Below, one piece after another: positions 3,051-15,013 of a stretch of DNA of 64,000 bases. The stretch spans positions 1 through 64,000 of the IMG/VR virus record IMGVR_UViG_3300032163_000008; one strand, given 5' to 3'. Position 1 is the stretch's first letter. Each line of letters opens with the position of its first letter. Source of the stretch: a virus. Position numbers and translations under genes: made by a program. The notes under the pieces are model-generated. The model searched no databases, was not told the DNA's origin, and saw only the letters and a program-made list of their open reading frames with translations.

Positions 3051-3129
3051 TGCGACAAATTGATTTTTTGTAATGAATTGAAATTATTTCATATAGATAT
3101 CTTTATCATATTTGAGGAGGAAATAAATT

Positions 3130-3624
3130 ATGGCAACAGTAGAAGTGAACGTATCAGACATCAGTTTTGACAGGCATGAGTACATGGATGTCCTTGACAA
3201 CCTTGACGGTGAGAAGGTTCTGGAGTGGGTGCAGGACAATTTCAGCACCGAAGACATCTGTGAGGGCCTAGACACCTATAAGGTGCTAGAGGCCCTGAGC
3301 CTTGATACCAAGGACGTGCTAGATGCGCTTGAAGGCGCTAATGGCAGGCGAGACGAGATCAAGGCATGGATCGGTGAAGAGCTTGAGGTTGATACAGTTA
3401 ACCGCTTAATGGCGGGGTCTGCGCGACAAGCTGTCATAGCCCATGTGTTGAGCAAGGTAACACTGCTCGAGATCGGTCTGGCGCTAGTAGCGATGGCCAC
3501 TCCACCAGTGCCAGCAGTTGAGCAGGTGGAGCCCACTAAGCAGCATGCTGCGTTAGGGGCGGTAGCTGATGACCTGGTGACTATCCTCGATAATGCTGAG
3601 GAAGAGGTCCTAGTGTTGCGTTGA
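3130..3624 (+). CDS. acidic hypothetical early protein
   Basis: promoter motif and GAGGAGG RBS upstream. Confidence 0.8.
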   Translation: MATVEVNVSDISFDRHEYMDVLDNLDGEKVLEWVQDNFSTEDICEGLDTYKVLEALSLDTKDVLDALEGANGRRDEIKAWIGEELEVDTVNRLMAGSARQAVIAHVLSKVTLLEIGLALVAMATPPVPAVEQVEPTKQHAALGAVADDLVTILDNAEEEVLVLR

Positions 3625-3788
3625 TGTTGCCTCTTAAGTATCACTCCAGGTATGACATAGGTATAGACATGACAATAACAGCGCAAGCGCAAAGATGAAG
3701 AGGCAGCTACCCTTTGTGACAAATTGAAGATTTGTAATGTATTTTTTGAGTTCTAATAGAACTACTCATCAAACGCAAGGAGGTAATT

Positions 3789-3890
3789 ATGGATTGGCGA
3801 CTATTATTTTATATTATAGGCTTTCTCCCGTTAACCATTGTAGTGATTATGGCTTGTATGCCGGAGAATGATGGCAGCGTAGATCTTTAG
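3789..3890 (+). CDS. 33 aa membrane microprotein (MDWRLLFYIIGFLPLTIVVIMACMPENDGSVDL)
   Basis: promoter motif at 3735 and AAGGAGGT RBS; one hydrophobic segment; not in ORF track. Confidence 0.6.
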   Translation: MDWRLLFYIIGFLPLTIVVIMACMPENDGSVDL

Positions 3891-3899
3891 GAATACACG

Positions 3900-4280
3900 T
3901 CAAACATAAGTGGGGGCAACGATGAATAAGGAAATCGTAGTAGTGGCAGCTTTGGTTGTCTTCCCCATCTTTGATATGGGAAGCTTCACTACCTCCTTCA
4001 CTCCCTTGGAGTAGAGATAGGTGATTATAGCACCACGGAGCTCCACGATAATAGCGTTCTGTTTGCTAACCCAGAAGTCCTCTATTAGAACCGCACTGAT
4101 GTGAGAGGGTAGTAGAGGTATGAGCTTCCCGTATAGCTCGAACACTCTCTGGTATGGGTCTCTTCCGGAAGTCCTAATGGTGTACTTCTCGTGGGTTTGT
4201 GTCTGAGGATCCCAAATGAATATTCCTGTGCTGTTTGTACCCAAATCAAGACAAACAATTTTTTGGGGCAATAAAGACAT
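3900..4280 (-). CDS. RuvC/RNase H-fold nuclease-like protein, C-terminally short (possibly inactive or pseudogene)
   Basis: IVCLDLGTNSTG first strand, VLIED second acidic residue, ELRGAI helix; no C-terminal DxxD helix. Confidence 0.65.
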   Translation of the reverse strand: MSLLPQKIVCLDLGTNSTGIFIWDPQTQTHEKYTIRTSGRDPYQRVFELYGKLIPLLPSHISAVLIEDFWVSKQNAIIVELRGAIITYLYSKGVKEVVKLPISKMGKTTKAATTTISLFIVAPTYV

Positions 4281-4349
4281 ATCTTAATTGTCGCTCCCAA
4301 AGCAACAGAAAGTACTGAAATACACAAGAAATAGTATATGATAGACAAT

Positions 4350-5140
4350 AACAGCGTTGCAACGCTGCTTGTAGTTGGCAGACTTCACTGCCCTCTGGTC
4401 CTCTACTGCCAAACTAGTAGATTGAACTTGCGCCAAGGCCGGCAAGAGGGGTTCATCCATTCCCCTGATAAAATTGGGCCCGCTCTGGGACACTGAGACG
4501 TCGTCGGTCCGCTTCGTAATAGACCGTGTTTTTGCTCTAACACCGGGGGTGACCCCAACTACTGAGTGTTTGCATGGTCCCACTGACTCCTAGGCTAGGT
4601 GGGACCGAATAAACTTTTTGTCTGATAATTAAACCGTCAAGGTGGTACGGGCCGTTCTTCGGATATAAGTGCAAGTTTGCAAGCTGAGACAAAGATACGC
4701 GGAGTAGTGCGGTTTGCTTATCAAGAGTTTGTTTTTTCTAGCCACCTTGAGTGGCTTTTCCGGTTTGCTGGGACAGAATCTGTCAAAGTACCAAAAGGTT
4801 ATAGTTATAGTAGTAGATGTTATGGATTAGCAGCCTTTTCATAAAAGTGCGGCTACTGCCTGGGTAGATATGCCCTGGCCGTCCCCCGTGAAAGCACGCC
4901 TAAAGTCAGGACGTTAAGAAGGTGATGGAGGCAAGGTCATGCCGGAGAGATCCGACAACGATCGTTACCGATCGTTGGACTCGTTGAAAAAGTACGAGAC
5001 CGAAAGGTTCTGTGACCCCTTACTGAGTTTGGATCCCGCATAATCAGCGGGTCAGGCATCAGCGAGCGGGTCATACTATATGCATTACCCATGTCATCTA
5101 TTGCATCCATGACATGGGTTGCCTAGAGACCTAGTGCCGC
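4350..5140 (+). ncRNA. candidate large (~800 nt) structured non-coding RNA
   Basis: no credible ORF; dense hairpins such as agcgttgcaacgct, ggtcccac..gtgggacc, cgtg-aaag-cacg, caacgatcg..cgatcgttg, acc-GAAA-ggt, tgaccc..gggtca. Confidence 0.55.
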
Positions 5141-5276
5141 ATGTGCATCCAACCATATTTTGTAATGAATAGAAATTTTTTAATATAGTAATACTCATAC
5201 GTCACAAACAAACAAAAATAAGTTTGTGACCACTTTGGAGGAGGTGAGACGAGTGCAAAAAGAAAAGGAGTCTATT

Positions 5277-5654
5277 ATGGACAAAACAATTGAGCTAGTA
5301 CAAGAGAACGGTAAAGAAGTTTGCTATGCAAAGGTAACATCGGGTAAGCGCGAGGGCGCGATCATCCGTGTGTACTACATCCGAGCCAATGACGGAGTTG
5401 TCGTGGGCAAGGACATCCAGACTAAGAAGGTCATAGCTGTGGGCAAGGGTTCGATGAGTGAAGAGTTCAGAGCCCACTACAACTTGACAACTGGCCGTAA
5501 GGGTCAAAGCTACGACAGCATCCTTGCTGAGCTCGGCAAGGCAGTTGAAGCTGTGCAAGAGGAAGTACCTGAGGTTGTAGCTGAGCCAGAAATGGCTATG
5601 GCAGAAGCAAGCGTCGTCGCTCCTAAGAAAGCTACGCCACGCAAGCGTAAGTAA
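5277..5654 (+). CDS. KOW/SH3-like small protein, paralogue 1 of three
   Basis: AAGGAG RBS before ATG 5277; aligns by eye with the products at 9849-10130 and 11684-11980 (ENGK..Y..G..G..R.Y.IR.DG..G..IQ..SEEF..SYD.IL). Confidence 0.8.
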   Translation: MDKTIELVQENGKEVCYAKVTSGKREGAIIRVYYIRANDGVVVGKDIQTKKVIAVGKGSMSEEFRAHYNLTTGRKGQSYDSILAELGKAVEAVQEEVPEVVAEPEMAMAEASVVAPKKATPRKRK

Positions 5655-5683
5655 TTTATTTCCGCTAGGGTGTATGCCTCCAC

Positions 5684-5748
5684 GTCACCCTAGCATCCCC
5701 AATACGTCCAACCAAGTCACCCCTAGCATCCCCAATACGTCCAACCAA
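5684..5748. repeat. tandem duplication, 32/33 bp x2
   Basis: gtcaccc(c)tagcatccccaatacgtccaaccaa twice. Confidence 0.9.
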
Positions 5749-5999
5749 ATTTTATAATGAATGTAAATTATTTTATATAGTATTACCTATATAATAAGTA
5801 AATTATTATTATTGATCCTTGGAGGAGGTGATACAAGTGTCAGACAAGAAGCATGACATGACAGACATGTGCGGGTGGATGTATGCAGCAGGGTTCGAGC
5901 CATGCAACTTCGGTTGTGACGGCTGTCCGATCTATGATGCAATTGAGGAAGCGAAAGAGGCAGTGGAGACAGAAGAATAAAACGGTGGGAGGCACCAAG

Positions 6000-6473
6000 A
6001 TGACAAATAAGTATAGCATGCTCAACGAGCAAGGCCAGTATGTGGAAGTGACTAAAGAGGTGTTTGAAGCGGACACCAAGGCAAGGGAAGATAAGTTTGC
6101 TGCAGCGCTGGCGATCACACAACCTGATCCCGATAGTTTGCATAGAGCAGTTACCATGAGCAATCACAAGATCGAGGTATGGGCGCTACCATTCCACTTC
6201 GATGAGCCGTTCAAGGTAGGGTATGCGTACAGCATGCTGGACTGCATGAAGATGATAGTTAGGTTCGAGCAAGAGGCCTACGACTGCGAAGTGACCCTAG
6301 AAGAGTTATTCTTCTTCAAGCCTAGCAGTGTGGTAGAATACTACGGCAATATCGAGATAGCACTGAATGAGGAAGTGGTTAGCTTCATTGAGCGCGTCTC
6401 TGATAGGATCGTAGCAGCGATCAGTGTTGACTGGGATGAAACTGACACCTATGTAATGGTCAAGGAAGCCTAG
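6000..6473 (+). CDS. hypothetical early protein
   Basis: GGGAGG RBS before ATG 6000 (track start 5883 probably too long). Confidence 0.75.
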   Translation: MTNKYSMLNEQGQYVEVTKEVFEADTKAREDKFAAALAITQPDPDSLHRAVTMSNHKIEVWALPFHFDEPFKVGYAYSMLDCMKMIVRFEQEAYDCEVTLEELFFFKPSSVVEYYGNIEIALNEEVVSFIERVSDRIVAAISVDWDETDTYVMVKEA

Positions 6474-6587
6474 TCATGTGGGACGCGGATGCCAGGCATC
6501 CGCGTCCATCTATTTGAAATTTTTAATGAATGTAAATTATTTTATATAGTATTGTCATATATAATATAAAATTATATAAATTGAGTC

Positions 6588-6649
6588 ATGGAGGTGACAA
6601 TAATGGATCGGTATTTAAATGGAGGTGACAATAATGGATCGGTATTTAA
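6588..6649. repeat. tandem duplication, 31 bp x2, of an RBS-ATG unit
   Basis: atggaggtgacaataatggatcggtatttaa twice. Confidence 0.9.
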
Positions 6650-6658
6650 AAGGTGGAG

Positions 6659-6925
6659 ATGATGAACCTGAATGCGTACGATCAAGTCGAACTTGTGTCG
6701 TACGATCCAGAGATGTTCGTAGGGGTGGATGAGTACAGAGATTCGATCATAGAGATTCAGCCAGAAGGACATGCACACAAGTATGACTTCAATGAGTGGA
6801 TCAGCGATCGCGAGGGTGAGATTGCTCACTGGGAAAGCATGGAAGGTAACACCGAAGAGGATGAGTCCTTTATCAAGATGCTTAAGGGAGACCTTGAGAC
6901 GATGCTAGCTATGAAACAATTCTAA
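6659..6925 (+). CDS. acidic hypothetical early protein
   Basis: AAGGTGGAG RBS; downstream of promoter motif at 6524. Confidence 0.7.
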   Translation: MMNLNAYDQVELVSYDPEMFVGVDEYRDSIIEIQPEGHAHKYDFNEWISDREGEIAHWESMEGNTEEDESFIKMLKGDLETMLAMKQF

Positions 6926-6929
6926 GGAG

Positions 6930-7130
6930 ATGAATACTATGAGAAGTTTGCAAGAGCTACAGAAGGTGCCGTTTGCTAAGATGACGACAGAGGAAGAGTG
7001 TTTGTTTGTTCCTCCCGTCACGTCCAGGTTTGCACAGACCATGAATGAAGTTTGTAACAATGAAGTTTGTCATGAGGAAGATCACGAGGCCTACATGCAG
7101 TTTCTAAGTTTGGAGATGAGCCAGCTATGA
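6930..7130 (+). CDS. hypothetical protein
   Basis: operonic with neighbours. Confidence 0.6.
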   Translation: MNTMRSLQELQKVPFAKMTTEEECLFVPPVTSRFAQTMNEVCNNEVCHEEDHEAYMQFLSLEMSQL

Positions 7131-7411
7131 AGAGTTATATCATAATGAGCCAGTACCATGACTATGGGAACATCGAGACCTTCCTGAGGAGAGGGTCCTT
7201 TGCAACTGAGAAGGATCTTTTCAGAGACGTGTTCAAAGCTTCCCTGGATCAAGAGGATGAGCAGGGAAACATTATTGGAGAAGTGTTCAATAGGCTAGAG
7301 GGTGAGGAGCTCATGGATTACATCTATGAGACGCTCGTCGATCCAGACCATGAGTTTACGTTAACAGTCTTTGAAGAGGAAAGCTTGGAGCTTGTCCTAG
7401 AAAAGAACTAA
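7127..7411 (+). CDS. acidic hypothetical protein
   Basis: ATGA coupling; followed by 15-bp-stem hairpin at 7416-7459. Confidence 0.7.
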   Translation: MKSYIIMSQYHDYGNIETFLRRGSFATEKDLFRDVFKASLDQEDEQGNIIGEVFNRLEGEELMDYIYETLVDPDHEFTLTVFEEESLELVLEKN

Positions 7412-7615
7412 TTCCTTTGACATGACAGAGACAGAGACCTCCACCTCTGTCATGTCAAATCTCTTTACCACTGTGAGTCCAACTTCCTATACATGTGAGT
7501 CCAACTGTGAGAGATCACATATTTGAAATTTATAATGAATATATATTTTTTTATATAGATGAGTCATATAATAATTTTTTATTATAAATTGACTCACTGA
7601 GGAGGTGACAAGACG

Positions 7616-7822
7616 ATGGACAAGATACAAGCAGCAATTGACAGCAACGAGGATCTGCGCGAGGTTATGGCGTTTGTGCCAGTCAGCGACGCGGAGAGCT
7701 TCAACGACTGGGATCAAGCAGAAGGTTACGGTGTGTGTTTGCCACTGGTAACGGGTATAGTATGTGAGAAGGCTTTGGAGGAAGCTTACAAGGATCTAGT
7801 GCAGAGGTTTGAGAAGAGATAA
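7616..7822 (+). CDS. hypothetical early protein
   Basis: promoter motif at 7533, GAGGAGGTGA RBS. Confidence 0.75.
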   Translation: MDKIQAAIDSNEDLREVMAFVPVSDAESFNDWDQAEGYGVCLPLVTGIVCEKALEEAYKDLVQRFEKR

Positions 7823-7845
7823 AATAAAAGTGGGAGGCACTTAAT

Positions 7846-8439
7846 ATGAGACTAGACGACAGGTTCGTAATCAATGTCAATGCAGAGGATAGAGAAGTTT
7901 ATTGTGAGGATAGTGATAATTCAATGTCCAAGGGTGAGTATGTGGGGTATTGTGAAGATACATCAGGTCAGATGATAGGAGACGTCATCATCAGGTTCAA
8001 CGGTACTGAAGAGGGTTTGTATGACGTGGTAAGTCAGTATTGTGGTGATGAGGATCTGGAAACGGTTAAAGAGTTTGTTAGGGGGAAAGAGTTTGTGGAA
8101 GTGTCAGAGTTCAATGACTACGCCATATTAAGGATGTCAGTGAAGCTCCGAGATGCTTGGGAGCGGATAAGGGAAATAGAGACTAAGTGGGAAGCAGATC
8201 TGAGGATAGTGACCGAGAGGCACAACAAGGGTCTTACAGAGGAACAGAAGCTGAGGTTCTGGGCATATGTGTCTGACTTCTGCTTCAGTGGCAGATATGG
8301 TATAGGGAGTTACTACAGTGACTACGTCATGCTTAATACAAGTGACGGTCACGTGTGTGATGATGAGGATTGGTACTATGGGTACGAGGCTGATGTACTG
8401 AAGGTACTAGAGGATGCGGGCATAGAAGTAGTCAGCTAA
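7846..8439 (+). CDS. acidic hypothetical early protein
   Basis: GGGAGG RBS, 197 aa. Confidence 0.8.
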   Translation: MRLDDRFVINVNAEDREVYCEDSDNSMSKGEYVGYCEDTSGQMIGDVIIRFNGTEEGLYDVVSQYCGDEDLETVKEFVRGKEFVEVSEFNDYAILRMSVKLRDAWERIREIETKWEADLRIVTERHNKGLTEEQKLRFWAYVSDFCFSGRYGIGSYYSDYVMLNTSDGHVCDDEDWYYGYEADVLKVLEDAGIEVVS

Positions 8440-8597
8440 TACTGAAGGGTCCTTCTCTGGGTATGAGACAGAGAAGGGTCCGGGGGATGAACTTTAAGCG
8501 ACCACATATTTGAAATTTATAATGAATGTAAATTATTTTATATAGTAGGGTCATATATATTAAAAATATATAAATTGACTCATGTGGAGGTGAGACT

Positions 8598-8786
8598 ATG
8601 TACGACGATCAAGATTATGATGACGCGTTCGAAGAGAATCCAGAGTTCGCAGAAAGATACTATGCAGCACGGAATGCAGAACCGACACATCCATGTCCCC
8701 AGTGCGGAACTGAAAATGTGTTGAATGATGATGACGTCAGACGGGGTTACCGTTGTGATGCCTGTGCCGATGAGGCTGAGAGATAG
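8598..8786 (+). CDS. small Zn-ribbon protein
   Basis: CPQC..CDAC; promoter motif at 8520, GGAGGTGA RBS. Confidence 0.75.
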   Translation: MYDDQDYDDAFEENPEFAERYYAARNAEPTHPCPQCGTENVLNDDDVRRGYRCDACADEAER

Positions 8787-8845
8787 AACCTAAGGGTCCA
8801 GGGCCCGGGTCGAAACAAAAGTTTGTTAAAGGAGTGGAGGCACCT

Positions 8846-9178
8846 ATGAAGGATATAAAGTTTGTTAAGGCAGTGCAGTTTAAGGTTCACGTCTATGGTC
8901 AAAGCGAGGATGTGATCTTACATGTGACTGAGGATGATCCGATCGCTACGACTAATTACTGTGAGCCCAATGATGAGGGTGGTTACAACAGTGAGGAAGA
9001 TGAGTATGAGTGGGATAAGAATGACACGATCACTCACAGGTCAGAGACTGAGGGCAAGGACTGTGATGGCGTTACTAGGCATACGTACAGTCAAGACTAT
9101 ACGATCAGTACAGGCACGTGGGGTAAGATCTATCACGAGCGCTGCTATGATCAATATGCTGAGGCCGCAGGCTACTAA
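8846..9178 (+). CDS. acidic hypothetical early protein
   Basis: GTGGAGG RBS before ATG 8846. Confidence 0.7.
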   Translation: MKDIKFVKAVQFKVHVYGQSEDVILHVTEDDPIATTNYCEPNDEGGYNSEEDEYEWDKNDTITHRSETEGKDCDGVTRHTYSQDYTISTGTWGKIYHERCYDQYAEAAGY

Positions 9179-9421
9179 AGCGTCTTAAGATGTAACTGGG
9201 TCCCTGATCAGAGTGGGGATCCAGATTACATCCAACCATAAATTTTATTGTATTTATTTTTTATTAAATAGATGGACCCTTTGAGTATTCCCAAAGCATC
9301 CACCCATGAAAATTAATGAACAGATTTTATTTTAAATAGTAGTGTCTCGAAGGGTCCTGGGACCACAAGTTTGCTGAGTCCGCATCCCTGTTATTTTCGA
9401 TTTTAATAAGTTTGTTTAGAA

Positions 9422-9601
9422 GTTTGTATGATCTTATTAAAAAGTTTTTCTAATCGATTTTTGCAAGAAGAAACGTTTGTTTTAGTTGAAGTTTGTTTAA
9501 CTATGTTTGTTTGTATGATCTTATTAAAAAGTTTTTCTAATCGATTTTTGCAAGAAGAAACGTTTGTTTTAGTTGAAGTTTGTTTAACTATGTTTGTTTG
9601 T
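9422..9601. repeat. exact tandem duplication, 87 bp period
   Basis: units start at 9428 and 9515 (atgatcttattaaaaag...tgtttgtttgt). Confidence 0.9.
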
Positions 9602-9631
9602 TTTTATTTATTAATAAGTTTATTAATGAGG

Positions 9632-9814
9632 TTTGTCAGAGTCGTTTGTCACTCGTGTTTGTTGGTCAAGTTTGCTGGGGACGTTTGTCTGGGTGAGTTT
9701 GCTAGAGGAGTTTGCTCTGTAGGTTTGTCGCAGGAGTTTGCTGCATTAAGTTTTGTTGGACACAGTTTGCCCAGGGAGTTTGCTAGAGGAGTTTGTCAAG
9801 CGGTTTGTTAAAGG
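9632..9814 (+). repeat. 13-bp periodic array 1 (KTTTGYY + variable 6 nt)
   Basis: TTTG at 9632, 9645, 9658, 9671, 9684, 9698, 9711, 9724, 9737, 9752, 9766, 9779, 9792, 9804. Confidence 0.9.
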
Positions 9815-9850
9815 ATGCGAGCGGGTTTGTGGCCCGCTCGCATTTTGTTT
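9815..9850. terminator. hairpin/terminator between array 1 and paralogue 2
   Basis: atgcgagcggg-tttgtgg-cccgctcgcat followed by a T-run on the + strand. Confidence 0.75.
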
Positions 9851-10130
9851 ATTCTTCGGTTTGGAACTTGTCCATTATCGCGGAATAGTCCTTACTTGCA
9901 CGCGCACTTGCTGGCTTGGCTCCAACTGCTTCCAGGAACTCTGGACTGAAGTTAGACCTGCCGATGTACTTGACTCCAGCGATCTTCTTACCGTTCTGGA
10001 TTACTGATCCGCCGATGATGCCATCTTTACGGATGAAGTAGAACCTGAATAGCTCGCCTTTATAAGTGCCACCCACTGGACGCGTGTAGTAAGCGTCCTT
10101 TCCATTTTCGGACTGCTTTACTACTGACAT
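9849..10130 (-). CDS. KOW/SH3-like small protein, paralogue 2
   Basis: GTGGAGG RBS before ATG 10130; near-identical to 11684-11980. Confidence 0.85.
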   Translation of the reverse strand: MSVVKQSENGKDAYYTRPVGGTYKGELFRFYFIRKDGIIGGSVIQNGKKIAGVKYIGRSNFSPEFLEAVGAKPASARASKDYSAIMDKFQTEE

Positions 10131-10400
10131 ATTATGCCTCCACATATATTTATTATAATTTATTTATTTTAATAAATATTAATTTAAATTTATTATATTA
10201 TTAAATTATTAAAATAATATAATATTAATATTTATATATATAGCTAGTGTCAAAAATTTATATACATTAAAAAATATCGATATATACGAAATATTTAATG
10301 TATATAAATATTATTATATAGGGACCAGGTTCGAGAATCCAACCATAAAATCTAATGAACATAAATTTAATTAAATAGCAGGGTCCCGCCTGGATCGGAG

Positions 10401-10424
10401 CCCGGGACGAAGTCCGGGGTGGTC
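10401..10424. repeat. 24-bp dispersed repeat, copy 1 (copy 2 at 12262-12285)
   Basis: cccgggacgaagtccggggtggtc identical at both sites. Confidence 0.85.
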
Positions 10425-10516
10425 GAAGACTCCTAGAATTAATTTAAAATATTTAATGTATTAAAATTTAGAATTATAGTACTACACATAACTACACATT
10501 AACGGGAGGAACCAAA

Positions 10517-10669
10517 ATGAGTAGAGAGCACTTAGAAGAGCAGTACAAGATCAAGTTAAGGATTCTCGAACAACTGAGGGTATTCGTGAATGCAGAGGAT
10601 GATCTAGTAAAGTTGGCACGGATCGAACAAGAAATCAATTCGTACATAGGGGGGAAGCACAATGGATGA
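10517..10669 (+). CDS. 50 aa hypothetical protein
   Basis: promoter motif at 10454, GGGAGG RBS; MSREHLEEQYK... Confidence 0.65.
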   Translation: MSREHLEEQYKIKLRILEQLRVFVNAEDDLVKLARIEQEINSYIGGKHNG

Positions 10670-10817
10670 TGATGTAATAAAGATCGTAGAAGAAGCTCAC
10701 AGGGAGTGGGAGCAGTTCAGTAAGGAATATGATCGCAACATAAAACCTAACATTACGGTACCATTCGTAATGGATTTCGGTACAATAGCGATCGAGTTAG
10801 AGTATTCGAGGAGTTAA
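10662..10817 (+). CDS. 51 aa hypothetical protein
   Basis: overlaps upstream stop; MDDDVIKIVEE... Confidence 0.55.
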   Translation: MDDDVIKIVEEAHREWEQFSKEYDRNIKPNITVPFVMDFGTIAIELEYSRS

Positions 10818-10892
10818 GTAAGGAAAAGATAGAGTATAGTAGTAGGCATACAACCGTATTAGGAATAACAAAGTACTAATACGTCACCTCAT

Positions 10893-10949
10893 GATCGGTA
10901 GGAGGTTCCCTCCCTCCCCATTCCTCCTACCGATCTTCTTTCTTTCCTT
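10893..10949 (+). terminator. intrinsic terminator with C-rich loop
   Basis: gatcggtaggagg...cctcctaccgatc followed by a T-rich tail. Confidence 0.7.
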
Positions 10950-10982
10950 ACATAGTATTATATAATTACGGAGGCGATACAA

Positions 10983-11144
10983 ATGAAAGATTACTTTAAG
11001 TGGCTGTTCGAGGATGCGATACCAAAGATGATGATCTTCTTGGGTAACACGCTCGTGTATATCATCAAATTAATATTCGCGTTCGCGATCGGGTGGATGA
11101 TAGGAGCTGTTCTCTTTGGAGGTAACCATGATCAAGAGAATTGA
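10983..11144 (+). CDS. 53 aa membrane protein
   Basis: GGAGG RBS, TATAATTA at 10961; hydrophobic core. Confidence 0.6.
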   Translation: MKDYFKWLFEDAIPKMMIFLGNTLVYIIKLIFAFAIGWMIGAVLFGGNHDQEN

Positions 11145-11301
11145 GTCGGCTGTCGAGAACTACTTGCGAGCGAAAAGAGAGAATCCTAACTTCAAGCAGT
11201 ATCGTCCTAGCGTTCAACTCACTGCAAAGGACAAAGCTCAGAAGAGGAACAACGCAAAACAGATCTTCCGCAAAGAATTAGAGGAAGAATGGCACGCTTA
11301 A
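11128..11301 (+). CDS. basic hypothetical protein
   Basis: GGAGGT RBS before ATG 11128. Confidence 0.65.
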   Translation: MIKRIESAVENYLRAKRENPNFKQYRPSVQLTAKDKAQKRNNAKQIFRKELEEEWHA

Positions 11302-11390
11302 CCGGGAATTTTCCCCTGGATGAAGTTTGTTTGCTATAGTTGATAGTACAGATCGAAGTTTGCTATCAAAATCGTTTCTAGGTGATGGGT

Positions 11391-11648
11391 TTTGTCAGGT
11401 GTTTGCCTGAGATTTTGTTTCTCTGGGATTTTGCTATGAAATTTGTCATAGGAGTTTGTTGATCACTTTTGTCAGACTGTTTTGTCAGGTGAGTTTGTTA
11501 GATTATTTTGTCAGGTCAGTTTGTTGGACTATTTTGCTTATCGGGTTTGTTCGGGTGGTTTGTAAAACTCTTTTGCCACTGAGGTTTGTGGGATCAGTTT
11601 GTCCAGAGAGTTTGCTTGGGGGTTTGCTAGAGGAGTTTGTTAAAAAAC
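11391..11648 (+). repeat. 13-bp periodic array 2 (KTTTGYY + variable 6 nt)
   Basis: TTTG every 13 bp at 11442, 11455, 11468, 11481, 11494, 11507, 11520, 11533, 11546, 11559, 11572, 11585, 11598, 11611, then 11623 and 11636; looser units from 11391. Confidence 0.92.
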
Positions 11649-11649
11649 T

Positions 11650-11690
11650 GGGGACAAGTTTGTTAGACTTGTCCCCTTTGTTTTTATTCT
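11650..11690. terminator. bidirectional hairpin/terminator between array 2 and paralogue 3
   Basis: ggggacaagt-ttgttag-acttgtcccc, preceded by an A-run and followed by a T-run. Confidence 0.75.
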
Positions 11691-11980
11691 ATTTCTTCAG
11701 CAGGTTTCTCGAACTTGCTTAAGATATCGTCGTAAGACTTTGTACTACGTGCAGTTGCTGGCTTGGCTCCGACAGCTTTTAGAAATTCTTCAGAGAAGTT
11801 CGATCTTCCGATGTACTTGACTCCTGGTAACTTCTTACCATCTTGTATAACCGACCCACCGATAATCCCATCCTTGCGGATGAAGTAGAATCTGAATAGA
11901 TCACCTTTATACGTACCACCCTCTGGCCGCGTGTAGTACGCGTCCTTTCCGTTCTCGGACTGCGTTACTACTTCACTCAT
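11684..11980 (-). CDS. KOW/SH3-like small protein, paralogue 3
   Basis: GTGGAGG RBS before ATG 11980; near-identical to paralogue 2. Confidence 0.85.
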   Translation of the reverse strand: MSEVVTQSENGKDAYYTRPEGGTYKGDLFRFYFIRKDGIIGGSVIQDGKKLPGVKYIGRSNFSEEFLKAVGAKPATARSTKSYDDILSKFEKPAEEIE

Positions 11981-12631
11981 GTTATGCCTCCACATATTTA
12001 TTATAATTTACTTATTATTAAATATTTAATTTAGATTTATTATATAATTAAATTATTAAAATTATATAATATTAAATATTTATAAATATATCTAGGAAGT
12101 GACAAATCAATACATTACAAAATATGAGTCAATTAACTTGAGACATATTGATTATTTATAATGTATTGATATTATTATAAATAGAGAGTCCACCCATAGA
12201 GTCCAATGTATAGAATTGAAATCATATAGGGGATTCATATACCCCAAAAAGTGGTTACGTGCCCGGGACGAAGTCCGGGGTGGTCACGTAGTGACTAAGG
12301 TCAACGGGTAATCACATATACCCCAAAAAATGGGTATATGTCGGGTCGAAGGAAAAAAGTAGCGATGGCGTACCGGGTGGTCGCGTAGCGACTCCTGGAT
12401 CGGTGACAATTAAGATATGAACACAAAGAAAGGAAAGGTGGTGATGGTATAGGTGAGAGAATTTGAAGAAGAGTCTACGTTCTACAACGGCGTAGCTTAA
12501 GTCAGCATAGTAGCCCTGCTACTACATCATGAAGTGCTGATAGTCAGAAACAGTAAAGTACAATTTCCAATATAATATAGAGGTACATGCAGAACTCCAG
12601 GGTTCCGCTAAAATCATTACAGGGAGACACC

Positions 12632-13693
12632 ATGCAAAACAGAGTGTTAGCGCTTGAAGAGGTTATATGGGAAATTACCAGTAAGTGCAACAATGGGTGC
12701 AGTTACTGTGGAAGTGCTGCGTATTTGAATCAAGCAGAAGATGATACATGGAAGAGGATCATTGAGAACATCATTGCTATGAAGACCATTAAAGAGGTTA
12801 ACATAAGTGGTGGTGATCCTCTACTAGTAGACATGGACACCCATTACACAATCACAGCAATGCTCAAACAAGAGGGCATCAAAGCAAAGATCATAATCAA
12901 TCCAATTAGCTTGCAGACAACCCAGAATGTTGATGCAGAGGAAATCCTTCGCATGTACGACTGGATAGGAGTAAGTGTAAATAATATCAGGGAGTATAAC
13001 AATTACAAGGTCTATCTAAAAGACTTTGAGAACGTCACACTGATAACAAATATCAATGTTAGCAACTACCACATGCTGGATGCAATCGCAGCAGAACTAC
13101 CCAAAGACAGGATCTGGACCATACAGTTCACAATAGCTGATAATAACAATGCTATCTACAGAGATGAGAGCTTGGCGGCACTGGTAAGGGTAAAGCTACA
13201 TGCAGCTATAACAAATGGACTGAAGATAGTATTTGGAGACAATTGCAATAAGGCTTTGTGTGGAGCAGGTTCAAGAAGTGTGGGTATAACTTTTGACGGA
13301 GTAGTACTTCCATGTTTGAGTATGAGGAGTTGGTGGACAGAAGACGAAATACATTTGTGGAGCATGGATGAAAGTCACAGTCTAAATCATAGAGCACTCT
13401 CAAGTATTTGGAGAGATAGCTTTGATGGCTATAGGTTTGAAGAATTTAAGTGTTGTAAAGATGCGTGTGATAATAGGATACTAGAGGTTCAACCTGCCTT
13501 TATCAAAAGAGATATAGGAGAAAGAACTGGACCGTATGCACCAGTAGATTGGCCAGAGCCTAATTGGCCTCCAAGGAACAATCAGGTAATGATGTATGGA
13601 GTAACAACGGGTCCGGTAATGGTATACGGAGTAAAGGATAGTTGGAGTTCAGGGGTATCTTACACAGGAGCGACAGGAGAACCACCACAGTGA
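12632..13693 (+). CDS. radical SAM enzyme, splicease (PlpX)-like, with C-terminal XYG repeats
   Basis: VIWEITSKCNNGCSYCGS (CxxxCxxC), SGGDPL, CGAG..GITFDG..LPC auxiliary-cluster motif; tail VMMYGV..VMVYGV. Confidence 0.85.
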   Translation: MQNRVLALEEVIWEITSKCNNGCSYCGSAAYLNQAEDDTWKRIIENIIAMKTIKEVNISGGDPLLVDMDTHYTITAMLKQEGIKAKIIINPISLQTTQNVDAEEILRMYDWIGVSVNNIREYNNYKVYLKDFENVTLITNINVSNYHMLDAIAAELPKDRIWTIQFTIADNNNAIYRDESLAALVRVKLHAAITNGLKIVFGDNCNKALCGAGSRSVGITFDGVVLPCLSMRSWWTEDEIHLWSMDESHSLNHRALSSIWRDSFDGYRFEEFKCCKDACDNRILEVQPAFIKRDIGERTGPYAPVDWPEPNWPPRNNQVMMYGVTTGPVMVYGVKDSWSSGVSYTGATGEPPQ

Positions 13694-13941
13694 TATTAAG
13701 TGTTAAACAGAAGAGAGTGTTAAAAGAAAGAGTAGCAGAGAAGTTCCCTAATGCGGAACTGCTACGTATAAGATCGGTACAGAAAGCATATACTGATAGT
13801 AAGGTAAAGATAATCCTGCTTGAAGCAGGTAAGGAACAGACACATTACTTAGACTTAGCTTATCTCAGAGATGAGAAGGGTAATGGTGTACTGAAGAAAA
13901 AAGGAGGCAGAGATGTCAACACTAGCAGTAGAAGTATGTAG
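13690..13941 (+). CDS. basic hypothetical protein
   Basis: GTGA coupling to the radical SAM stop; AGGAG RBS. Confidence 0.6.
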   Translation: MILSVKQKRVLKERVAEKFPNAELLRIRSVQKAYTDSKVKIILLEAGKEQTHYLDLAYLRDEKGNGVLKKKGGRDVNTSSRSM

Positions 13942-15013
13942 CGTAGATAAGATAGAGCCGATTGAGAAAGCAGATAGCTTAGAGCTTCTGTACGTCAAGG
14001 GTTGGTGCTGTGTAGCACAGAAAGATGCCTTCAAAGTAGGAGATCTGTGCGTGTACTTTCCAATAGACAGCATCCTCACAGAAGAACTAGAGAACCGTAT
14101 CTTCGGGCTTGAGTCTAAGATCAGACTAGAGAAGCATCGCATTAGAACAATAAAGCTTCGTGGACAGATCAGCCAAGGGCTGGTAACTAAGTTTGATACA
14201 CTGGGCATTACTCCAAGAAAGCTTGGAGACGACCTTACTAAAGAACTTGGTGTAACTAAGCATGAGCCACCCCTAAGAACAGGACCTCAGTCTAACATCA
14301 AGCAGGCATCAAAGAAGCAGGTTAATCCTCTATTCCGTAAGTACACAGACATAGAGAACTTCAAGAACCATGTCACGGTATTTGAAGAAGGTGAGCAGGT
14401 ATCAATAACTGAGAAGGTACATGGTAGTAATGTCAGATTCGCATATCTGCCAACTGCTCCATCTACACTGTGGAAGAAGATACTGAAGTTCATTGGGATG
14501 CTGCCAGCATACGAAATATGCATAGGTAGTCATAACGTACAACTCCAGGATAAAGGTAAGAACACAAAGACCTTTCACGGTGGTAACATCTATAGAGAGA
14601 TGTTCGACAAATACGAGATAGAGCAGTACCTGGCTCCGGGCTGGGCATTCTATGGAGAAGTCTATGGAAGCTCTGTACAGGGCGGGTATATGTATGGATG
14701 CAAAGAAGGTGAGCGTAAACTCTGCTTATTCGATATTATGGTAGATGGGGTGTGGATGGATGCTCCTGACTTTCAGGTATTCTGTAGAACTCATGGACTA
14801 CCAATGGTACCAGAACTCTATAGAGGACCTTTCAATGCTGAAGCTGCTAAAGCTCTGACTGCTGGTAACTCAGTAATAGCTCCTACACAGAAGGTCAGAG
14901 AAGGCGTGGTCATTAAACCTTTGAAGGAAGAACACTGCCGTATAGGGCGTAAGGTGCTAAAGCTGATCAGTGATGAGTATCTCCTAGTAAAGGGGAATAC
15001 AGATTTCCACTAA
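13913..15013 (+). CDS. RNA ligase, DRB0094/Rnl2-like
   Basis: N-terminal IEPIEKADSLE..GDLCVYFPIDS, motif I TEKVHGSN, FYGEVYG, LFDI, REGVVIKP, LKLIS. Confidence 0.9.
   Translation: MSTLAVEVCSVDKIEPIEKADSLELLYVKGWCCVAQKDAFKVGDLCVYFPIDSILTEELENRIFGLESKIRLEKHRIRTIKLRGQISQGLVTKFDTLGITPRKLGDDLTKELGVTKHEPPLRTGPQSNIKQASKKQVNPLFRKYTDIENFKNHVTVFEEGEQVSITEKVHGSNVRFAYLPTAPSTLWKKILKFIGMLPAYEICIGSHNVQLQDKGKNTKTFHGGNIYREMFDKYEIEQYLAPGWAFYGEVYGSSVQGGYMYGCKEGERKLCLFDIMVDGVWMDAPDFQVFCRTHGLPMVPELYRGPFNAEAAKALTAGNSVIAPTQKVREGVVIKPLKEEHCRIGRKVLKLISDEYLLVKGNTDFH

Follow-up and report, generated by a model that had tools for sequence, protein, structure and literature searches.

The described systems closest to the gene analysed here are radical S-adenosylmethionine (SAM) enzymes that act on short motifs in peptides, and precursors in which an enzyme and its core peptide share one chain. 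Spliceases excise tyramine at X-Y-G, where the natural X is Met or Leu (PMC11414181, PMC10533398, PMC11626197, PMC9811515); the natural splice sites are MYG and LYG (PMC10533398, PMC11626197) and the splice tag derived from PlpA reads AVAA-x-YGVVFP (PMC10533398). The splicease PlpX can act without a leader, and the fusion of a leader or a Y protein to spliceases works (PMC11414181); the corresponding family model, TIGR04103, has been described as InterPro entry IPR026482 (PMC11002830). Triceptide synthases link an aromatic residue (Omega1) to the C-beta of X3 in motifs that are often repeated (PMC11499958), with ChlB acting on YDR (and accepting Phe too) and HaaB acting on HAA (PMC11499958), and MftC and PqqE represent further tyrosine-centred options (PMC8326336). 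OphMA and the other borosins are autocatalytic precursors in which the enzyme is fused to the core (PMC8429565). Here we describe a gene on the + strand of a 64,000-nt stretch of viral DNA (the window; positions 1 to 64,000 of IMG/VR record IMGVR_UViG_3300032163_000008) whose product combines a radical SAM enzyme with a C-terminal tail that carries a repeated tyrosine motif. All positions are in the numbering of the window and all residue numbers refer to the 353-aa product.

The window protein shares with the spliceases (PlpX/PlpY/PlpA, PcpX, RhaX/RhaA, RcsX and RasX) a radical SAM domain joined to a probable SPASM-type one, and a motif built around Tyr that a hydrophobic residue precedes; splicease precursors, too, can hold several sites, and there are spliceases that act independently of a leader or work as engineered fusions. 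In contrast to them, the window family has its putative substrate on the enzyme's own chain, has no Nif11/NHLP leader, Y protein or separate A gene, retains only five conserved auxiliary cysteines, shows a nearly invariant Val at +2 and a dispensable Gly at +1 of the motif, and is restricted to phages. With the triceptide synthases (XncB, YhhB, HaaB, HtkB and ChlB) it has in common a Y-[G/A]-V motif that fits Omega1-X2-X3, and ChlB belongs to the top tier of its structural neighbours, whereas the substrate would be fused rather than supplied as a separate precursor and the conservation runs upstream to positions -3 and -1. PqqE/PqqA and MftC/MftA are SPASM maturases that start Tyr-centred C-C chemistry (Glu-Tyr in PqqA, Val-Tyr in MftA); unlike these, the window protein scores far under the cut-offs of their hidden Markov models (HMMs), its motif differs in sequence, position and multiplicity, and there is no PqqD or MftB partner. 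The borosins OphMA and dbOphMA offer a parallel in layout, an enzyme plus a C-terminal core in one polypeptide, the enzyme working iteratively on the tail of its own family and in trans within a homodimer (PMC8429565), but the borosin enzyme is a SAM-dependent N-methyltransferase with a different chemistry, and borosins are fungal or bacterial, not phage-borne. A literature search returned no description of the window family, of any radical SAM enzyme from a phage that has a tail of this type, or of a radical SAM precursor fusion.

The tyrosine motif of the C-terminal tail

Across the family, the tail motif follows the consensus [V/T/I]-hydrophobic-[V/M/A/L]-Y-[G/A]-V. When a strict form of it, [hydrophobic]2-Y-[G/A]-[V/I], was counted in 158 members, 294 occurrences fell within 15,057 tail residues and 3 within 43,408 core residues, an enrichment in the tail that is far beyond chance. 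This strict motif is carried by 152 of the 158 members (about 96%) in one to four copies each (up to six per member with a looser pattern), the commonest spacing between copies being 10–12 residues. The median distance from the auxiliary-cluster region to the first motif is 35 aa and a median of 27 aa follows the last one. Even family members at 28–31% identity retain the motif.

The tyrosine is the best conserved position of the motif, with an information content of 4.32 bits, followed by position +2 (4.05 bits, V or I counted), position +1 (G/A/S, 3.13 bits) and, more weakly, positions -1 (V/M/A/L, 1.71 bits) and -3 (V/T/I, 1.69 bits); Pro is enriched at -5. In an alignment of 150 sequences, the tail Tyr forms an invariant column, as do the Fe-S cysteines. 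When the flanks are left unconstrained, 316 of the 763 tail tyrosines precede G/A/S and then V. Conversely, among 235 hydrophobic-hydrophobic-x-[G/A]-V contexts, x is Tyr in 232 and never Phe, Trp or His, while Phe makes up 3.6% of the tail residues. Because these residues never replace the motif Tyr, chemistry at the phenol is favoured over a merely sticky strand.

The sequence-only reading of this DNA had pointed to two X-Y-G sites in the tail and proposed to look for their conservation in homologues. That expectation holds for the tyrosine and for the motif as a whole, but not for the glycine. Ala occupies position +1 in about 40% of the copies (Ala or Ser in about 43%), 27 of 148 members (18%) are devoid of any Y-G and have only Y-A-V or Y-S-V, and the Gly/Ala state is polyphyletic, with about 22 changes on the core-domain tree; the glycine is thus dispensable. 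The residues on the two sides of the Tyr co-vary: Ala at -1 is followed by Ala at +1 in 47 of 54 copies, and V, M or L at -1 goes mostly with Gly. We found no convincing core residue tied to Gly-containing versus Ala-only tails (best p = 8e-5 before correction for multiple tests).

Several members show additional features around the motif. A few (L001:5109–5402 and P0074) end in a zinc-ribbon-like CxC...CxxC past the Tyr motifs. At its N-terminus, P0074 has a DUF7919 domain as well (111.5 bits), and an additional ILYGIS is found close to the N-terminus of P0075.

The enzyme core

Two in-frame ATGs, at 12587 and 12632, are present in the open reading frame (ORF) terminating at 13693. The N-termini of 36 homologues, which were found by a word-based search at 34–43% identity, read MQxxxLKLxEIIWE and align with the ATG at 12632, so the start was set there rather than at 12587. 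This agrees with the gene limits in the sequence-only reading, and each sequence feature quoted there was found at its coordinates (Table 1).

Table 1. Coordinates of the radical SAM gene, the parts of its product and the nearest upstream promoter-like motifs.
Feature	Position	Strand	Remarks
Radical SAM/SPASM-type enzyme coding sequence with motif tail	12632–13693	+	353 aa plus stop; ORF
CxxxCxxC (C19, C23, C26), binds the radical SAM [4Fe-4S] cluster	12686–12709	+	Invariant in the 36-homologue and 150-sequence alignments
SGGDP, residues 59–63, presumed glycine-rich SAM-binding motif	12806–12820	+	S59, G60, G61 and P63 invariant (36-homologue alignment)
SPASM/twitch-type auxiliary cluster region	13259–13468	+	C210-x12-G223-x4-C228, then C274-C275-x3-C279
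Disordered Pro-rich linker, residues 280–318, including P313	13469–13585	+	Predicted local distance difference test (pLDDT) score of the model 35–54; P313 nearly invariant
Motif copy 1, VMMYGV, residues 319–324 (Y322, V324)	13586–13603	+	Y322 invariant, V324 nearly invariant
Motif copy 2, VMVYGV, residues 329–334 (Y332, V334)	13616–13633	+	10 residues after copy 1
C-terminal remainder KDSWSSGVSYTGATGEPPQ	13634–13690	+	Variable, not conserved
Two early-type promoter motif copies, TAATGWAY-N13-WATAG	12159–12184, 12204–12229	+	Closest upstream of the gene, about 400 nt

That the product is a radical SAM enzyme, as had been proposed from the sequence, was confirmed by the match to the Pfam domain PF04055 (Radical_SAM; 42.7 bits versus a cut-off of 29.5) and by the invariant CxxxCxxC, whose cysteines lie within VIWEITSKCNNGCSYCGS; Fer4_12 was also matched. 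SGGDP is presumably the glycine-rich motif with which radical SAM enzymes bind SAM. The stretch CGAG...GITFDG..LPCLS corresponds to C210-x12-G223-x4-C228 of the auxiliary cluster region and CCKDAC supplies C274, C275 and C279; in the 36-homologue alignment C210, C228 and C275 are invariant, and C274 and C279 are retained in at least 90% of the sequences. As the conserved auxiliary cysteines number only five, a single auxiliary Fe-S cluster is likely, as in twitch domains. The SPASM profile PF13186 gave 16.6 bits on the window protein, under the cut-off of 21.5, and was passed by 8 of 10 longer homologues scanned, 7 of them at 26–37 bits; the twitch region of BtrN matches the same profile.

No NCBIfam model came near its cut-off for the window protein, and the 36 homologues gave the same picture. 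Viperin (NF038283) scored 43.8 bits versus 180, PqqE (TIGR02109) 35 versus 381 and MftC (TIGR03962) 22.7 versus 265, which places the protein outside these families. PHROGs returned a generic radical SAM match only, and ESM Atlas generic radical SAM clusters only.

In the AlphaFold2 model, residues 1–290 are predicted with confidence and the tail is coil. Foldseek and VIA-align comparisons with solved structures ranked SuiB (Z 19.9), CteB (19.4), ChlB (19.4), PqqE (19.2), anSME (18.7) and SkfB (18.5) at the top, the best Foldseek match being PqqE (3.6e-11); MoaA and viperin followed in VIA-align at Z 17.6 and 17.1, respectively. The ChlB structures 9gmc and 9gm3 (Z 19.3–19.4) align from ChlB residue 3. 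The alignments of SuiB and CteB start past their N-terminal domains for recognition of ribosomally made peptides with post-translational modifications (RiPPs), known as RiPP recognition elements (RREs), which indicates that the window protein lacks an RRE. Together, the predicted fold and the sequence motifs assign the N-terminal 290 residues to a radical SAM barrel with an auxiliary Fe-S domain, probably SPASM/twitch-type, as in enzymes that modify peptides.

Family size and distribution

An HMM search of 1.84 billion representative sequences yielded at least 255 clusters (50% identity) at E ≤ 1e-30, and the top 150 matches were all family members; a search for longer fused forms (796–2270 aa) returned none. 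In IMG/VR the family is found on phage contigs of 80–372 kb. Among 185,579 prokaryotic species (one genome each) there were only two cellular occurrences, both on contigs of metagenome-assembled genomes. One of these, an 18 kb contig assigned to Candidatus Paceibacterota (L019; JBAZWP010000016.1), has a member at 4845–6185 with four motif copies and probably represents either a prophage or phage DNA that was binned with the genome. The cultured phages in INPHARED gave no match at either the protein or the DNA level. The family is phage-restricted.

Gene context was compared by clustering the ORFs from 17 IMG/VR loci plus the window (18 loci). No neighbour gene was conserved in the 18 loci, and none of the flanking ORFs carried the motif more than once, save for a 230-aa ORF in L003, whose two weak motif matches were taken as chance. 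Likewise, the 18 loci held no convincing separate A-protein precursor with a leader, whether with or without a Y protein; the motif is on the enzyme itself.

A proposed enzyme–substrate fusion and the alternatives

An RRE-less fold of the peptide-maturase type, a disordered tail held on a tether, a Tyr motif that is exclusive to this enzyme and the absence of a partner gene lead us to read the protein as an enzyme–substrate fusion, that is, an autocatalytic RiPP-like radical SAM enzyme that would modify its own tail at Tyr; judged from the sequence, we give this a slightly better than even chance. The linker of about 35–40 residues would then be a tether that stands in for leader recognition and delivers the motif copies to the active site, either in cis or, as in OphMA, to that of a partner chain. 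SAM would be cleaved reductively, and the resulting 5'-deoxyadenosyl radical would set off tyrosine-centred chemistry at every copy; the modified tail might serve as a warhead for inhibition, as a constrained peptide for binding or as a cofactor derived from the protein. The layout of autocatalytic RiPP precursors, an enzyme and a C-terminal core in one chain, is kept in about 96% of the family, a likeness that is one of analogy, the enzyme class being different. The variation in copy number and spacing looks substrate-like, as in multi-core RiPP precursors, and the co-variation between -1 and +1 may reflect a pocket common to both residues. The proposal of the sequence-only reading that the enzyme carries its substrate in cis thus survives in part: the motif is there, its Tyr is kept family-wide, copies vary in number, and no separate precursor, RRE or partner was seen, but X-Y-G as such is not kept.

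Several observations weigh against a fused substrate. The split version that would provide a Rosetta-stone proof of the pairing, a tail-less enzyme beside a separate motif peptide, was not found, and about 3% of the members (P0108, P0119 and P0158) have no motif, P0119 being absent from IMG/VR. An alignment of the tail alone, compared with proteins of 22–228 aa in a search for stand-alone tail-like peptides, gave nothing at E ≤ 10, which is a weak test given the short motif and the 5.8 billion sequences. The structural lead over MoaA and viperin, which are not peptide enzymes, is modest (2–3 Z units), a repeated motif for binding another partner would also account for the strongly conserved positions -3 and -1 and for copies regularly spaced 10–11 residues apart, and the monomer model of the window protein shows the tail as low-confidence coil (pLDDT 35–53). 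In the model of a short-tailed homologue, pLDDT reaches 76 across the motif block versus 56–61 in the linker, a rise that hints at docking. Predictions of a complex between the core (residues 1–296) and the tail (305–345) with SAM and two 4Fe-4S clusters scored 0.84, 0.02 and 0.05; the median is under the mark and the result weighs neither way.

Which chemistry such a fusion would perform is a matter on which the motif gives divided signals. The sequence-only reading had named a tyramine splicease that would excise C8H9NO (about 135 Da) at MYG and VYG and leave alpha-keto-beta-amides as warheads against host or defence proteases; as a special case of the fusion, this is possible but, on the sequence, unlikely. 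The X residues of the two window sites are M and V, next to MYG and LYG in nature, the PlpA-derived tag has a similar appearance of a hydrophobic run followed by Y-G-V, the Tyr of the motif is strictly required, co-variation of -1 and +1 suits a reaction that joins both flanks of the Tyr, and PlpX can do without a leader, while fusions of leaders or Y proteins to spliceases work. TIGR04103 was weakly matched by 32 of the 36 members (best E 6e-10). Its score, however, is 28.5 bits for the protein (27.3 for the genome) versus a cut-off of 725, no better than for viperin, PqqE, MoaA and many other unrelated radical SAM families, so that membership in the splicease family was not borne out; neither the IMG/VR record of the window nor any of 14 control genomes gave a TIGR04103 match above the cut-off. 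The two other models that had been suggested fared no better: TIGR04133 gave 28.2 bits versus 425 (matched by all 36 members, best E 1.5e-14) and TIGR03913, named 'GDL motif peptide-associated' maturase in NCBIfam, stayed below its cut-off (25 of 36 members, best E 2.3e-10), and a literature search found no paper tying TIGR04133 or TIGR03913 to splicing. Splicing would further leave the near-invariant Val at +2 unexplained, as spliceases do not need it, and it sits poorly with the dispensable Gly at +1 and with the lack of any visible Y protein or leader helix; the gene context gives a protease-inhibitor role no support.

A Tyr–Val cyclophane of the triceptide type fits the motif equally well. 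Here the Tyr ring (Omega1) would be joined to the C-beta of Val (X3) across a small X2, with a loss of 2 Da per copy and a three-residue ring as the product; again as a variant of the fusion, we regard this as rather unlikely. The match to the Omega1-X2-X3 substrate pattern, with its aromatic first residue and conserved X3, is apparent in Y-[G/A/S]-V, where the two best-conserved positions stand at i and i+2, separated by a small residue that is exchanged freely. Triceptide precursors hold one to several such motifs, and ChlB ties for the top structural match. That tie, however, extends to SuiB, CteB and PqqE and is non-discriminating, the YhhB model NF041707 scored 24.7 bits versus a cut-off of 445, a three-residue ring has no need of the conservation at -1 and -3 or of the -1/+1 co-variation, ChlB takes Phe too whereas the family never swaps Tyr for Phe, and among characterised examples we found none whose X3 is Val. 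Some other Tyr chemistry within a fusion seems, from the motif, improbable.

Outside the fusion, the tail might be no substrate at all but a repeated short linear motif that binds a host protein, a phage protein or a further subunit in oligomerisation, or else a regulatory pseudosubstrate, and the enzyme's target would then be different, be it a small molecule, nucleotide or RNA or some other protein; going by the sequence, this is a somewhat unlikely but serious alternative. A six-residue, hydrophobic, strand-like motif with P/N/D/G/T flanks and a spacing of 10–11 residues has the look of a multivalent beta-strand binding module, the tail of the window protein is unstructured in the model, some members (L001, P0074) have zinc-ribbon-like ends, the gene is closely followed in the window phage by one for an RNA ligase, and the folds of viperin and MoaA rank only 2–3 Z units under the peptide maturases. 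Yet the complete absence of Phe in place of Tyr from 235 motif contexts would be unusual for a purely hydrophobic docking strand, the motif is exclusive to this enzyme family with no conserved partner gene, the RNA ligase gene is not conserved in the other loci, and the best structural matches are peptide-modifying enzymes. A glycyl-radical arrangement, in which an activase would carry the glycyl radical site on its own tail, is very improbable. A conserved Gly next to an aromatic residue near a radical SAM enzyme superficially recalls activase substrates, and the structure of the pyruvate formate-lyase (PFL) activase (3cb8) matched at Z 13.6. The glycyl radical site motif, however, is RVxG[F/W/Y], so that the order in Y-G is reversed, and a SPASM-type domain is not an activase feature. 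We rejected this arrangement because about 40% of the copies have Ala in place of Gly, as have all the copies in 18% of the members.

Should the tail be a substrate, a self-contained, single-gene system for peptide modification would exist in hundreds of phage lineages while being nearly absent from cells, and it would join radical SAM peptide chemistry to a fused-precursor architecture known so far from borosins. To phage biology it would add a novel type of early effector, and to protein engineers it would offer a compact, leader-free enzyme/tag pair for a tyrosine-derived modification. The further step, that large phages hold a one-gene RiPP factory whose modified protein or released peptide acts early on something in the host, for instance a defence that relies on proteases, extrapolates from sequence and is doubtful; its products would be ketoamide warheads or Tyr–Val cyclophanes made from the tail Tyr motifs. 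If true, it would mark the first case of an autocatalytic precursor with a radical SAM enzyme, and of a RiPP-like class specific to phages. A protease-inhibitor role of the tail is speculative.

Genomic surroundings of the gene

The source virus is represented by a 79 kb IMG/VR record that is about 48% complete, and the major capsid protein that it encodes shares 39% identity with the counterparts in SPO1-like Bacillus phages. Window DNA was found in two sediment metagenome runs, one of which may be the window's own source; none of the runs listed that contain it is an RNA sequencing run.

The radical SAM gene lies in what looks like an early region of the phage. TAATGWAY-N13-WATAG has 15 matches in the window versus 1.2 expected, nearly all of them on the + strand in the first 12 kb (3071–12229), which fits a non-sigma-70 class of early promoters, and we infer that the two copies nearest to the gene would drive it. 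A scan for sigma-70 promoters and terminators around the gene found no excess over chance. Between the promoter motifs and the gene lie about 400 nt without an ORF (12230–12630, +), with two copies of CATATACCCCAAAAA as internal repeats and a hairpin rich in GC, GCCCGGGACGAAGTCCGGGGTGGTC, that recurs at 10391–10424; as a 5' leader, this segment has a fold z-score of -2.2 and no match in Rfam.

Downstream, an ORF of 83 codons (13690–13941, +) begins with a GTG that overlaps the stop codon of the radical SAM gene by 4 nt (GTGA) and has GGAGAA 9 nt upstream, an arrangement that suggests translational coupling of the two; this ORF has no Pfam match and is not kept beside the homologues. The RNA ligase mentioned above is encoded at 13913–15013 (+), with PF09414 at 77.8 bits, an N-terminal PHA02142 OB-fold at 79.2 bits and a KxHG nucleotidyl-transfer motif (EKVHGSN).

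Further upstream, 9422–9508 and 9509–9595 form a perfect 87-nt tandem duplication, and arrays of GTTTG-containing units with 13-nt spacing are present at 9627–9812 and 11437–11656.

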